64,000 nucleotides of DNA from Oligoflexia bacterium (GTDB lineage Bacteria > Bdellovibrionota > UBA1018). Position 1 is the first letter of the stretch, and every line of letters starts with the position of its first letter. Location: positions 32,001 to 96,000 of the forward strand of contig CAVWVI010000002.1 of the NCBI GenBank assembly GCA_963758495.1. The letters are read 5' to 3'. Shown here piece after piece: positions 55,854 through 64,000 of this stretch. A model generated the notes under the pieces. It made no database searches. It saw only the letters and a program-made list of their open reading frames with translations, and was not told the origin of the DNA. Both the position numbers and the translations under genes were made by a program.

Positions 55854-57255
55854 CGATGAAGCTTATTACTGGGTTCTCGCGCAGAAGCCCGCATTGGGTT
55901 ATGCTTTCCATCCGCCCGCAGTAGCGTGGTTCATTGCATTTTTTCAGCAAATTTTAGGAGGGTGGCTGGGACCTCATTCAACTGGCTTAGTGCGACTTCC
56001 TGCGGCATTAACCAGCGCGATCATTTTAAGTCTGAGTTTAAGATGGCTTGAAAAGTGTGGAATGGAGCGGTCATTTCAAGCTCGGGCAGCGAGTGTTATT
56101 CTTTCTTTTCTAGGCTTTTTTTCGCTGTCTTGGATGATGGTTCCAGATATTCCACTTTTTTTGGGGTGGATGATCGTTTTTACAAAGACTTGGGAGATCT
56201 GCTTTTTACAGCAACTCAAAAGGCATTGCTTTTGGGTTTTAGGATTGGGAAGCGCTTTAGTTCTTTTGTCAAAATACTCTGGAGTTTTGGCTATTTTTTC
56301 CGCGGCTCTTTCAGTGCTGATATGGGCACCCCGTCAGCGTCGGTTGAAAGCTTTGTTTTCCTTAACCGGCGGAGGATTACTGGCCTCATTGCCTATTTTA
56401 ATTTGGAATTCCCAACATCAGTGGGCTTCCATTCTTTACCAAATTCATGATCGTCATGCTGGGGGATCACTTTCTTTTTTACGTTATGCGAAATTTTGGG
56501 GAGTGGAGGCGGTTTTTGCAGGACCTGTTTTGGTCGTCTTCGGAGTTTTGCTCTTAATCAAGCACTTGGGCTTTCGTAAAAAATTTGAGGGGGCATTGTT
56601 TCATTTTATTTTTGTCTGGATGGCTCCAGCAGCCACTGTTTTTTTGATACAACCGCTGTTTTCTGATTTTAAGCCTCATTGGGCTTTTATTGTGTGGTGG
56701 CCTGCTTTACTTGCGTTAGCGTGGATGTCACAAAGCAAGTCATGGCGCTGGATCAAATACCAAGTGTTCTATGGTCTCGGATTAGGGGGGGTGGTGATAT
56801 TAAGCTGCCACTTGCCACTTGGAAGTTGGCTCGTCAGGGGTGTTTCCCATTCACAGTTTGATCCTCGATTAGATGTGACTAATGATTTTTACGGTTGGTC
56901 TGATTTAAATGCCTTTATTACTAAAATTCCCAATCAAGGAACACATCCACTCCCGGTGGTTGGCTCTCGTTATCAAACAGCGGCACAAGCCGCATTTGCT
57001 TTGAATCAAGTCACTGCAGTCACCTTTTTGCCTCGTGATTTAAAAGAAAAGGATGAATGGATGAATTTAAATATATCTGATGGGCAAGGTCCGGAGTGGC
57101 CACGCCTCACTACACCCGTACTTTATGTTTCAGATAATCGCTATAGTGAAGCCCCTCAGTTTCCTTCTGCAACTTGTCAAAAACAAGGAAGGCTGGAAAA
57201 GACTCGATTTAATCTACGGGTGAAGTGGATTGACGTCTGGCGCTGTGATCCCTGA
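55786..57255 (+). CDS. ArnT/PMT-type (GT-C) glycosyltransferase
   Basis: DEAYYW...GYAFHPP, VRLPA, PD.P, LLSKYS; many TM segments. Confidence 0.85.
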   Translation: MNPIPLVVFLVLWIHGSLLGLSDDEAYYWVLAQKPALGYAFHPPAVAWFIAFFQQILGGWLGPHSTGLVRLPAALTSAIILSLSLRWLEKCGMERSFQARAASVILSFLGFFSLSWMMVPDIPLFLGWMIVFTKTWEICFLQQLKRHCFWVLGLGSALVLLSKYSGVLAIFSAALSVLIWAPRQRRLKALFSLTGGGLLASLPILIWNSQHQWASILYQIHDRHAGGSLSFLRYAKFWGVEAVFAGPVLVVFGVLLLIKHLGFRKKFEGALFHFIFVWMAPAATVFLIQPLFSDFKPHWAFIVWWPALLALAWMSQSKSWRWIKYQVFYGLGLGGVVILSCHLPLGSWLVRGVSHSQFDPRLDVTNDFYGWSDLNAFITKIPNQGTHPLPVVGSRYQTAAQAAFALNQVTAVTFLPRDLKEKDEWMNLNISDGQGPEWPRLTTPVLYVSDNRYSEAPQFPSATCQKQGRLEKTRFNLRVKWIDVWRCDP

Positions 57256-58137
57256 TGTGTTCCCTGGATTCAGGGAGTCCGTGTAGGCTTGGACCAAGCT
57301 ATTTGGAATCCATCCTATGATTTTAGCGTGGGGTTCATCTTGTGACAAAATTTTGAACCAACGATCATTCCAGTCTAAAACTTTATAATGGCCAGTTGAA
57401 TCAGCAGAGCCAACAATCGAATATTGAGTTCCTGGTCCAGAGTAGAGGGTGGCTCTTTTTGTAATGAGTTTAACATGGAGAGAGCGTAAATCAGGTGCAC
57501 TTTTCTCTTCTCCTTCTTTGACAGGCTCTTTGACAGGAGCCATTGCGCTTTCTTGAACATGATCGGTCACTTCAGATCGGAGTTGTGCTTGTTCTGCGGC
57601 TGCGTACTGCCTGGCCTTTTTCCAGACTGTTTGACTTTGGGCATAGAGATAATATCCCGATGTAATAGCTAAAATCGCGGCAAGAACAATCCCTAGAGAG
57701 AGAGAATGTCTTCCCCTAGTTAAAATGGGATTTTCCGGTAAAGGCTCTGGCAGGGTAGCCTTTGGAATATTCATGCTTAATGGCTCTGGTGCAGGCTTCT
57801 GAGCAGCTATGTGATGTTTGAATACGGGAGGAGTAGGGAGGGGTACGGAAGTAGTGGGGGGGGCTTTTTTATCTACTTTTATTTTTGGAGCAGCGTGTTG
57901 TATGAGCTTTTGATTTGCGCTTTCGCTGACCAATCCTAAATGGGGATTCTCAGTTGCTTCGGGCAATAGGACTTTTTCGCCAGGAGGAGCTTTATCTACT
58001 TTAATCACACTAATTTCCGCTTTTCGGATCAGAGCAAATCCACCACATTTATAGCAGCGAGAAAATGACCACCCTGCACTGACCTTTTCATCCGAAATTG
58101 CTAAATTTATTCCACAATGAGGACAGCACCACTGCAT
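57214..58137 (-). CDS. Zn-ribbon / Pro-rich linker / TM / SH3b membrane protein
   Basis: CPHC...RCYKC; TM LGIVLAAILAI; LYSGPGTQYSIVG...WFKI...GWI. Confidence 0.8.
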   Translation of the reverse strand: MQWCCPHCGINLAISDEKVSAGWSFSRCYKCGGFALIRKAEISVIKVDKAPPGEKVLLPEATENPHLGLVSESANQKLIQHAAPKIKVDKKAPPTTSVPLPTPPVFKHHIAAQKPAPEPLSMNIPKATLPEPLPENPILTRGRHSLSLGIVLAAILAITSGYYLYAQSQTVWKKARQYAAAEQAQLRSEVTDHVQESAMAPVKEPVKEGEEKSAPDLRSLHVKLITKRATLYSGPGTQYSIVGSADSTGHYKVLDWNDRWFKILSQDEPHAKIIGWIPNSLVQAYTDSLNPGNTSGITAPDVNPLHP

Positions 58138-58183
58138 ATTCTATTCTCCCCTACTATAAGATTCCCAAGAGAAAGTGTAGAGG

Positions 58184-62628: not shown

Positions 62629-63362
62629 TCTAGCCCCGCAGGTTTACGTTCGACAAAGCGCCTCAGACTTTCGTCCTTTGGATTGAATCTAAGCGCTTGA
62701 TTCCATGATTTTAAAGCTAAGTTTCTCTTTCCCATTCTTTCCAAAAGAGTTCCGCGCATTTCATAGAGTTTTGCATCAGTCTGATATTTTTTTAGCATTT
62801 CATCTGTTTCAAGTAGAGCCGCTTCATATCTGGATGCCTTATAGAGTTGTTTGATATGGTCCAGCGCTGCTAAATAGCTGAAGGCGCCTTCACTTGGAGT
62901 TGCATCCTCACTGGGTGCTAGACTTAAACCTTGTTCAATCTCTCTTCTTTTTCCGTCATCTTCCGGCAAGCCTTGGGGAAAGTTATGAGTGATTTCGTGA
63001 TCTGAATAGCTGGGTGTTCGATTTTTATAAGACTCGTCCACGCCATCAACGCCACCACTCATTTGTGAAGCGGAAGCTCGATTAGAATCTTTAAATGCAG
63101 GAGAAATAGGAAGCACGAAATCACTTAGCAGTTGGGTGTCTCCTGGAATTTCTAGTTCAACTGAACGGTCCCCTTTTTTAGTCCTTAAAACCATGGCTTG
63201 CGCCGGATCCCCTTTGGCACCCGCGTGATAGTCGGAAAATGGATTGGCTATTGGCTTTACAGTGTTTGATTCATTCAGGCCAAGCATCGATTGCATAGAG
63301 GCACAACCTGAGAAGACAGGTAGAAAAAGTATAAATTGTGCGAAACTCCTTTTTCTAATCAT
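62625..63362 (-). CDS. TPR-containing lipoprotein
   Basis: Lipobox FSGC; C-terminal TPR (LYEMRGTLL...A..SWNQALRFNP). Confidence 0.8.
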   Translation of the reverse strand: MIRKRSFAQFILFLPVFSGCASMQSMLGLNESNTVKPIANPFSDYHAGAKGDPAQAMVLRTKKGDRSVELEIPGDTQLLSDFVLPISPAFKDSNRASASQMSGGVDGVDESYKNRTPSYSDHEITHNFPQGLPEDDGKRREIEQGLSLAPSEDATPSEGAFSYLAALDHIKQLYKASRYEAALLETDEMLKKYQTDAKLYEMRGTLLERMGKRNLALKSWNQALRFNPKDESLRRFVERKPAGLE

Positions 63363-63376
63363 TCTTTAATGTTCTC

Positions 63377-64000
63377 CTAAAACAATACGCTTACTCCTAA
63401 GCCATACTCTATGCCGCTTACAGTGCCCGAAGGACTTCCTCCTAGAAACGCAGTGGATGGGGGGCGGTATCCCAAATTTAAAGAAACTCCGAAGTGCTTT
63501 GCGAGACGGAATTCATACCCTGAGCGGAAGAGTCCCCCAAAATATCCAGATGCATAGGTTCCGCCTGCGCCCACATAGGCACTTCCCCGAATTTGGTTAT
63601 AGTTTTCTTCATCACCGATAAAATTCCATGCATGTAAAAACAGAAGAGTGAAGTTGAGTCCAAAACCTGAGTAAAAATTTTGCGGTGATGCTCCAGAGCT
63701 ATTGATAATGGTAGAAGCATCCGTCATATAACTCGCTTCAAATCCTACTTCTTTCTTTCGGTTGTCATACCTTTCCATCATCCGGTAGCCTAACGCCAAA
63801 CATCCTGTGCTTTTAGGAAGGTCTGGTTCCATAAGGTAATAAAGCGTGAGCCTGCTTTGAATCAGCGGTGAATACTCAGTTTGTTTTCTGGCATCATCTA
63901 TTTGATTATAGTCAACTCCTCTTCTAAAGGCGGAGGCTCTGGATGTTTCGGAGTTATAGCTACGAGACCAAGTGATACTTCCTGACTCCGGATCTGTCGT
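63377..64000 (-). CDS. Outer-membrane beta-barrel protein, 5'-truncated by window edge
   Basis: Frame open to position 64000 (TDPESGSITWSRSY...); amphipathic strands ending YGLGVSVLF. Confidence 0.75.
   Translation of the reverse strand, partial: TTDPESGSITWSRSYNSETSRASAFRRGVDYNQIDDARKQTEYSPLIQSRLTLYYLMEPDLPKSTGCLALGYRMMERYDNRKKEVGFEASYMTDASTIINSSGASPQNFYSGFGLNFTLLFLHAWNFIGDEENYNQIRGSAYVGAGGTYASGYFGGLFRSGYEFRLAKHFGVSLNLGYRPPSTAFLGGSPSGTVSGIEYGLGVSVLF

Follow-up and report, generated by a model that had tools for sequence, protein, structure and literature searches.

A conserved operon of Oligoflexia encodes a FliG-containing fusion protein, its own MotAB stator, and outer-membrane proteins: a putative rotor-stator machine outside the flagellum

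To our knowledge, FliG is known solely as the flagellar rotor of MotAB stators. We analyzed a 64,000-nucleotide stretch of DNA from an Oligoflexia bacterium (G000:C2:32001-96000, hereafter the window; source assembly of 3.66 Mb, 92% complete), in which positions 57214-64000 are filled by seven tightly packed open reading frames (ORFs) on the minus strand. They encode a protein that joins FliF-like and FliG domains, a MotAB pair, a β-barrel protein, a lipoprotein, and two further proteins, and the relatives of the window genes carry the labels Bdellovibrionota/Oligoflexia. We consider it reasonably probable that this operon encodes a second motor outside the flagellum, a dedicated, ion-driven rotor-stator machine that does not switch and that works on the outer membrane.

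Several described systems share parts with this operon. The Agl-Glt and type IX secretion (T9SS)/Gld systems combine an ion-driven inner-membrane motor with small barrels in the outer membrane, lipoproteins with TPRs, and a membrane protein bearing a Zn ribbon. As generally described, this parts list may resemble that of the operon, but the motors of these systems are of the ExbB/TolQ type (AglRQS) or are GldLM, and a FliG/RBM3 rotor is lacking; a separate AglRQS-like cluster was recognized by eye in the same genome (C3:677353-678968). Non-flagellar type III secretion systems (T3SS) and the SpoIIIA-IIQ rings re-use RBM ring-building domains outside the flagellum. In the injectisome, the export gate remains and the stator is gone; the module described here is the converse, with stator and rotor and no export gate. 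The flagellar motor core shares with the module the RBM3 fold, the N, M, and C parts of FliG, a flagellar-type MotA, and a MotB with an Asp, a plug, and an OmpA domain. However, the FliF part of the module consists of two RBM3-like domains behind a signal peptide, fused to FliG, and contains neither RBM1 nor RBM2. The module also lacks export gate, rod, hook, filament, and FliM/FliN, has its own outer-membrane partners, and occurs without flagella; the equivalents of EHPQR, MFXF, R281, R90, and E98 are replaced, and of the charged contacts only the acidic D288/D289 pair is kept. A preprint on engineered FliF-FliG fusions (Salmonella, Vibrio; PDB 8z4d; 10.1101/2023.02.06.527414) describes ring and rotor in one chain and the formation of membrane/supramembrane (MS) rings; those fusions are laboratory constructs of whole flagellar genes, whereas the fusion of the module is natural, conserved, truncated, and duplicated, and has its own stator.

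All seven genes lie where a preliminary description, made from the sequence, had placed them, with spacings of 14, -4, 2, -7, 19, and 46 nt, and most starts are preceded by purine-rich Shine-Dalgarno-like stretches. Scanning the operon region for promoters and terminators gave counts at shuffle level (18 vs 17.2 and 8 vs 7.8, respectively). The genes are listed below in the order of transcription.

63377..64000, minus strand: 3′ part of the outer-membrane barrel gene, cut by the window end, with the remaining 498 nt outside
G000:C2:95377-96498: whole barrel gene (373 amino acid residues), running beyond the window end
62625..63362, minus strand: TPR lipoprotein (245 residues)
60262..62628, minus strand: ring/rotor fusion (788 residues)
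59747..60259, minus strand: stand-alone cyclic-nucleotide-binding (cNMP) protein (170 residues)
58968..59753, minus strand: MotA (261 residues)
58184..58948, minus strand: MotB (254 residues from the ATG at 58948)
57214..58137, minus strand: Zn-ribbon - linker - transmembrane (TM) helix (146-164) - SH3b protein (307 residues)

Pfam assigned FliG_C (E 8e-16) and FliG_M (1.6e-6) to the 788-residue protein, MotA_ExbB (1.7e-20) to MotA, MotB_plug (3.6e-14) and OmpA (2.8e-13) to MotB, and cNMP_binding (4e-18) to the cNMP protein. The TPR, SH3_3, and Zn_ribbon_4 matches were all below cut-offs, and Pfam gave no family for the barrel protein. As the preliminary description had reported, fliM, fliN, rod, hook, and export genes are absent from the cluster. 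The Zn-ribbon/SH3b gene overlaps its convergent neighbor by 42 nt. A gene for a 269-residue lipoprotein (G000:C2:96625-97434, plus strand, outside the window) diverges from the barrel gene and is kept in 24 of 28 relatives; its product, which matched no Pfam, NCBIfam, or PADLOC family, is a candidate eighth component.

The architecture of the 788-residue protein was derived from Pfam, a structure model, and hydropathy. It comprises a signal peptide, two RBM3-like domains, a low-complexity linker, one TM helix, and N-like, M, and C parts of FliG, with the following positions.

62230..62559, minus strand: RBM3-like domain 1, residues 24-133, CxxxC (SpoIIIAG Z 7.4; topology)
61885..62223, minus strand: RBM3-like domain 2, residues 136-248, CxxxC (S-ring of Vibrio FliF, 8z5v, Z 10.9)
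61495..61575, minus strand: single TM helix, about residues 352-378 (hydropathy; helix 344-378 in the model)
60343..61380, minus strand: cytoplasmic FliG part, about residues 417-762 (fold and Pfam)

The AlphaFold2 model, built from a 37-row alignment (mean predicted local distance difference test score (pLDDT) 75.7, predicted template-modeling score (pTM) 0.30), shows two domains with alpha-beta-beta-alpha-beta topology; its linker is disordered, and its cytoplasmic part consists entirely of helices. Foldseek returned 19 matches at E <= 0.001, every one FliG or FliF. In VIA-align, the FliG part matched 1lkv (Z 14.4), 8umd (Z 13.9, residues 457-762), and 1qc7 (Z 12.4, root-mean-square deviation (rmsd) 1.9 Å), and domain 2 matched RBM3 of Vibrio FliF in 8z5v over 96 aligned residues with an rmsd of 2.2 Å and in 8z4d (Z 9.6), while FliF 6scn aligned over residues 25-248 (Z 10.0). 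For domain 1, the Z score against SpoIIIAG is middling, unrelated folds likewise reaching 7-8. No Pfam or NCBIfam family matched the FliF part, and the Pfam YscJ_FliF model matched solely a separate gene on contig C3. An atlas search with the periplasmic part gave leads only, the third match being YscJ_FliF_C (score 0.84), and a distant homologue on metagenome contig L066 showed a weak sequence match to YscJ_FliF_C (E 0.0013). The fusion of FliF and FliG named in the preliminary description is thus real but partial, because two RBM3-like domains, a TM helix, and FliG are present without RBM1, RBM2, or the first TM helix of FliF; the FliG fold, whose absence would have counted against that description, was found. 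The linker holds a conserved ERxEKIERVENGD. A strongly conserved E-[KR]-hydrophobic motif with three-residue periodicity, KYERIEKIERVENGD, lies at about residues 328-346 (about 61590-61650, minus strand), directly before the TM helix, and may be a ring-forming or partner-binding strand. FliG_C was also recognized in a 146-residue stand-alone protein outside any flagellar context (G000:C4:547725-548165) and, as a third match in genome G198, in a 235-residue frame.

MotA is of the flagellar (PomA/MotP-like) structural type, with MotP/PomA and Clostridium MotA as best matches. MotB carries the ion-binding Asp D40 in WLVSYAD, a plug, and an OmpA-type peptidoglycan-binding domain. With these features and the TM prolines of MotA, the pair has the characteristics of a MotA5B2-type stator. 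Membership of the Ton/Tol family was rejected on the basis of this B subunit and of the E values of MotA (1e-3 for TolQ vs 1e-40 for MotP/PomA models).

According to passages of a study on the E. coli motor, R90 and E98 of MotA pair with D289 and R281 of FliG, FliM docks on EHPQR, MFXF serves as the hinge for switching, and the proton is bound by MotB D32 (PMC6680979). We compared these positions in 35 distinct close fusion sequences and 35 MotA sequences, with the register set by the flagellar proteins of the same genome. The position of FliG R281 was E, D, or N (16, 18, and 1 sequences, respectively; E710 in the window protein), the positions of D288 and D289 remained acidic in 35 and 33 sequences (E717 and E718), and that of K264 was basic in 34 (K693). 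EHPQ...R was replaced by ESxT...E in all 35 fusions (E553-S-L-T...E588 in the window protein), and the MFVF hinge aligned with L662-V-S-V. In MotA, whose loop register hangs on one glycine with a one-residue gap, the position of R90 was small or hydrophobic and never R/K (V90 in the window protein), that of E98 was acidic in only one sequence (N98), and residues 88-89 were K/R-K/R in 35/35 (K88-K89). P156, T163, T194, and P207 were invariant in 35/35. The E98 and R281 halves of the canonical contact have therefore been lost together, which leaves the stator loop basic and the torque helix acidic. Our reading of this pattern is a private, co-evolved charge pairing without a FliM/CheY switch.

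The same loss of canonical torque residues, together with the lack of an evident load such as a filament, would suit a mechanosensor, in which a stator-ring unit tethered to the outer membrane informs a cytoplasmic partner, namely the cNMP protein, of load, surface contact, or envelope damage through ion flux or a change in conformation, with no sustained rotation. Translational coupling of the cNMP gene between the rotor and stator genes, the TolB-N-type domain on the barrel protein, and a HAMP/phosphatase-like gene that flanks a related version of the module (L042/L046; annotated by eye) point the same way. However, the whole FliG C domain with the K264 and D288/D289 equivalents and the invariant basic pair of MotA have been kept, as if force were still transmitted. 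Moreover, the cNMP protein has an intact phosphate-binding cassette (FGEMS...PRSAT), but its gene was found in 28 of 36 close loci, being absent from 8 including a whole subclade, and the distant versions of the module (G059/G052, L066, and the second-subtype loci described below) showed no such gene; no signaling gene belongs to the core. We regard the mechanosensor as unlikely. The cNMP protein was rejected as a core part on these counts and is an accessory of the window lineage, so that regulation by a cyclic nucleotide, postulated in the preliminary description, is not supported as a trait that defines the machine. The Zn-ribbon/SH3 gene is likewise an accessory (19/28 loci); its product gave a match to the GltJ N-terminus far below cut-off (E 0.002).

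The module is separate from the flagellum of its own host. The same genome has canonical fliF and fliG, adjacent on C3, and it also contains flhA, rod/hook genes, and flagellins. Apart from the pair in the operon, it encodes just one motAB pair with a plug, and that pair has the canonical RKEG..VE motif. Because this separate fliF/fliG pair is present, as the preliminary description had wished to see checked, the 788-residue fusion is not the flagellar rotor. Each genome has one flhA, in the flagellar region, and no export gate was found in the operon loci. Within the order of the window, flhA was found in 93 of 94 genomes and the barrel gene in 70 (51 of the 67 best genomes); allowing for incomplete assemblies, swimming is therefore independent of the module. 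Conversely, genomes G059 (91% complete) and G052 (89%) contain the module, whereas flagellin, flhA, rod proteins, and canonical FliG were not found in either; in their class, flhA was found in 0/12 genomes and the module in 2/12. These two genomes and the remodeled torque interface support the flagellum-independent rotor-stator module that had been postulated.

The operon could instead supply an auxiliary flagellar stator, MotAB being an alternative stator pair and the fusion, barrel, and lipoprotein its storage site or scaffold. Nearly every carrier of the module in the order has flhA (69/70, the exception being G228), as this would lead one to expect. The two genomes without recognizable flagellar genes argue against it, as does the absence from the module MotA of both residues that contact flagellar FliG. 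The phylogeny of MotA bears on the same question. In a 48-row tree, the MotAs with the canonical motif grouped together (14 rows, support 99/97), the window MotA fell in a separate 13-row clade (100/100), and the genome's five ExbB/TolQ/AglR proteins lay outside the MotAs; long branches were flagged, and L043/L044/L066 fell on the flagellar side with a long-branch warning. A 23-row tree without outgroup, from which 20 of 43 MotA rows had been dropped, after the first tree was seen, for being long-branched, unassigned, or redundant, split fusion-associated and canonical MotAs 13/10 at 99/98. Forcing the window clade together with the flagellar MotAs of the same order was rejected (approximately unbiased (AU) test, p 1.2e-12), and the module MotAs are hence not duplicates of those flagellar MotAs. 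An auxiliary stator is, in our judgment, an improbable explanation of the operon, on a par with the mechanosensor.

Conservation of the operon was assessed in 42 loci (37 from a genome scan and five more); counts use loci with enough flank, and some loci are near duplicates, so the counts are not independent. The barrel gene accompanied the fusion in 32/32 loci, the TPR gene in 33/34, MotA in 34/35, and MotB in 32/33, and this five-gene core is kept across loci, whereas a lack of conserved gene order would have told against the preliminary description. An apparent barrel-TPR fusion in L022, the lone TPR exception, was rejected as an N gap of the assembly joining two frames. The subclade L032-L037 plus L051 is without both accessory genes. 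Across the order, the operon genes are 42-67% identical with intact frames, and their position is fixed among housekeeping genes.

In a sample of 201 genomes of the phylum, the full-length form with two RBM domains was found in 29 genomes, all of the window's order. At E <= 1e-30, a profile search yielded 273 representatives, among them many 720-970-residue proteins, a large group with two RBM domains, one of which is labeled Oligoflexaceae; a metagenome scan with that homologue gave zero matches. A shorter form with a single RBM and the same five genes occurs in G059/G052 in the order barrel-TPR-MotA-MotB-fusion and on L066 in the order fusion-barrel-TPR-MotA-MotB. In a second subtype, found in several families, a single-RBM fusion is accompanied by a PEGA-like/TPR lipoprotein and a small stand-alone barrel. 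Ten further loci with non-canonical MotA were inspected, and six hold a protein with signal peptide, one TM helix, and a FliG-like part. At L047/L108 (G032:C13), a double-RBM operon stands in tandem with a second-subtype operon (lipoprotein, MotA, MotB, 578-residue one-TM protein, and small barrel), and G106, G033, and G053 have two or three non-canonical motAB pairs apiece.

Eight-stranded barrels are too narrow for protein passage. The 373-residue barrel protein consists of a signal peptide, a periplasmic TolB-N/LpoB-type alpha/beta domain (residues 47-185), and an eight-stranded OmpA/NspA-like barrel (residues 208-373) with a terminal Phe. Its AlphaFold2 model (pLDDT 81) matched NspA (Z 16.6, rmsd 2.3 Å, 140 aligned) and LpoB (Z 9.8), and the top Foldseek matches were TolB, LpoB, and OmpA. 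The lipobox Cys20 of the TPR lipoprotein is invariant, and C20, I38, P41, and F42 are identical in 29/29 sequences; the protein also has conserved IxNPF and RTKKGDRSVE segments and C-terminal TPRs, and with no Asp at +2 it is predicted to be sorted to the outer membrane. Complex prediction for barrel (40-373), fusion (22-352), and TPR lipoprotein (30-245) gave scores of 0.21 and 0.11 vs a mark of 0.32, with controls not folded, and speaks neither for nor against such a complex.

An RBM3 ring might alternatively form a channel like the SpoIIIAG or T3SS rings, the motor energizing secretion or translocation through it. This would agree with the RBM fold common to SpoIIIAG, EscJ, YscD, and CdsD, with the giant surface proteins (about 900-1900 residues) that often adjoin single-RBM versions, and with several eukaryote-like ankyrin/RING proteins in the genome. 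However, none of the examined loci contained genes for an export gate, an ATPase, or a large pore, the barrel of the operon is of the narrow type, and window-type operons have no conserved neighbor encoding a giant surface protein, so that we rate a conduit as quite improbable. As for the giant proteins themselves, those that often adjoin second-subtype modules (L098, L101-L104, and L106) measure about 900-1850 residues, one containing fibronectin III and one NHL repeats.

Zorya (ZorAB) shares with the module a non-flagellar MotAB-type motor with an OmpA-domain B subunit, and MotB matched the ZorB models (E 1e-22), as would any MotB. The module differs in that it has a FliG rotor, has no ZorA tail and no ZorC/D/E, and is stably inherited. 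Membership of Zorya was rejected, since MotA has 261 residues and no PADLOC match and the operon contains no effector genes; the barrel and TPR proteins had no PADLOC match either. An anti-phage system of this kind, or the decaying remnant left by duplication of a flagellar region, is also hard to reconcile with the presence of the operon in 70/94 genomes with intact frames and in a fixed position, and we give either idea very little credence.

A related cluster (L042/L045/L046) comprises MotA, MotB, a barrel on the other strand, a lipoprotein, a barrel, a helical protein, and a FliG fusion of 575-579 residues. In Bdellovibrio bacteriovorus HD100, Bd3014, Bd3016, Bd3017, Bd3018, Bd3019, and MotB have 577, 325, 194, 302, 205, and 319 residues, respectively (PMC3627812, supplement 2), and the counterparts in the related cluster have 575-579, 319-322, 192-197, 295-297, 204-210, and 319-326. 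Judged by gene order and lengths, the cluster is probably Bd3014-Bd3021 (the motAB2 region). It differs from the window operon in having a single RBM, stand-alone small barrels, a PEGA-like/TPR lipoprotein, and no cNMP gene. A deletion study of 2011 reportedly found that each motAB pair contributes to swimming, which would favor an auxiliary flagellar stator.

In the supplementary table cited above, Bd3014 is listed as hypothetical only. In both attack and growth phase, Bd3014, 3016, 3017, 3018, 3020, and 3021 count as silent, with 0-13.5 reads per kilobase per million mapped reads (RPKM) over the two phases and 0.5-13.5 RPKM for Bd3014-Bd3021 in attack phase, whereas fliF and motA3 reach 1725 and 332 RPKM in attack phase (PMC3627812, supplement 2). 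This contrast, which speaks against an auxiliary flagellar stator, is weakened because fliM and fliN are scored silent there as well. In array data, Bd3014, Bd3016, and Bd3021 are down in host-independent growth (PMC2797640, supplement). Passages of other reports state that in two-hybrid assays the FliL protein Bd1076 bound MotB3 and not MotA2/MotB2 (PMC11323537), which likewise disfavors an auxiliary stator, and that most epibiotic strains are without motAB2 (10.1101/2025.02.19.638989). The passages seen in the literature nevertheless treat Bdellovibrio motAB2 as a flagellar stator (PMC13689555, PMC11323537), in favor of that alternative.

The preferred reading, a dedicated rotor-stator machine, can be put as four steps. 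First, many copies of the 788-residue protein would come together as a ring in the inner membrane, held by their periplasmic RBM3-like domains and by contacts between FliG parts; a single chain would then supply both MS ring and torque ring, and the ring would enclose no export gate. Second, peptidoglycan-anchored MotA5B2 units would pass ions via MotB D40 and drive this ring, K88-K89 of MotA meeting the acidic torque helix (E710/E717/E718) in a private pairing that would fit the flagellar rotor or stator poorly. Third, without the FliM site and the MFXF hinge, the ring would turn or pull in one direction without CheY control; in the window lineage, the cNMP protein perhaps added a brake or switch. 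Fourth, the periplasmic face of the ring would act on the barrel/TPR-lipoprotein complex, which would replace the rod. The likeliest output would be mechanical work on outer-membrane or surface proteins, such as moving, presenting, or releasing adhesins; this proposal, drawn by analogy with Agl-Glt and T9SS, is tentative and is the weakest step of the four-part scheme.

Several observations weigh against a dedicated machine of this kind. Rotation, the ring, and the contacts within it are deduced from sequences and models (whole-fusion pTM 0.30), and we likewise infer the coupling to outer-membrane proteins and the output, whether motility, invasion, or secretion. Loss of the MotA R90/E98 pair could have led to weak or no torque instead of a new pairing. 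The assemblies of G059 and G052 are incomplete and fragmented (380 and 160 contigs, respectively). In L008 (229-3495), the fusion is directly followed by the Zn-ribbon gene, and the cNMP, MotA, and MotB genes are absent from the locus. Among the ten non-canonical motAB loci, three had no fusion within about 9 kb and one had a candidate of the same shape with no profile match. The preprint on engineered fusions describes the FliG part of the FliF-FliG ring as floppy without FliM/FliN (10.1101/2023.02.06.527414), and a 2026 review, in the part seen, has three Bdellovibrio motAB pairs powering one propeller (PMC13689555). Finally, flagellin genes lie <=7.5 kb upstream in 10/23 close loci, which would also suit an auxiliary stator; this proximity may be explained by local gene order, as unrelated neighbors are similarly syntenic (M14 peptidase, 13/24).

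As for individual loci, the three without a FliG fusion are L099 (G126), L100 (G106), and L105 (G047), two of which adjoin giant and coiled-coil proteins. The contig of the window carries five flagellin genes, distant from the basal-body cluster on C3, at the following positions.

18598-21674, minus strand: three flagellin genes, within the window
G000:C2:103209-105341: two flagellin genes, about 7 kb beyond the barrel gene

Other genes of the window resemble eukaryotic ones. An 838-residue ankyrin-repeat protein (46015-48531, plus strand) has a C-terminal Cys-rich RING-IBR-RING-like region (IBR_2 E 2.5e-4, below cut-off) resembling that of eukaryotic RBR ubiquitin ligases, and similar RING/ankyrin ORFs were found at C2:113049, 117112, and 121211 and at C3:787921. 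The sequences of these proteins suggest contact with eukaryotic cells. The window also encodes an ankyrin protein with a weak PI3/PI4-kinase-like domain (21921-23846, minus strand) and a eukaryote-like 987-residue HEAT-repeat protein (40162-43125, plus strand).

No description of such an operon was found in the literature searched, subscription papers and bioRxiv supplements lying outside the search. In a phylogenetic study of MotAB that treats flagellar-type stators as a single motility-specialized group, the passages seen contain no mention of such operons (PMC12505986), and no passage with 'fusion' or 'orphan' was found in the part seen of a preprint on the flagellar ancestor (PMC13277936). 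The operon may belong to an old, widespread family of stand-alone rotary machines, composed of a one-chain ring/rotor, MotAB, and outer-membrane partners, with its own co-evolved torque interface and represented in Bdellovibrionota by two or more subtypes and by several copies per genome. Such a family may descend from the flagellar motor or preserve a state near its ancestor, and Bdellovibrio motAB2 would be its stator and not a spare flagellar stator; we see the chances of this broader proposal as evenly balanced. If true, it would represent a new use of the motor, in which stator and rotor were kept while export gate, rod, and filament were dropped, and would provide a minimal system for torque generation with a different charge pairing as well as direct evidence on the origin or re-use of the flagellar motor. 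Because its related cluster probably corresponds to Bd3014-Bd3021, the machine can be tested in the cultured and genetically tractable Bdellovibrio, and a testable new answer is offered to the question why this organism has several motAB pairs.

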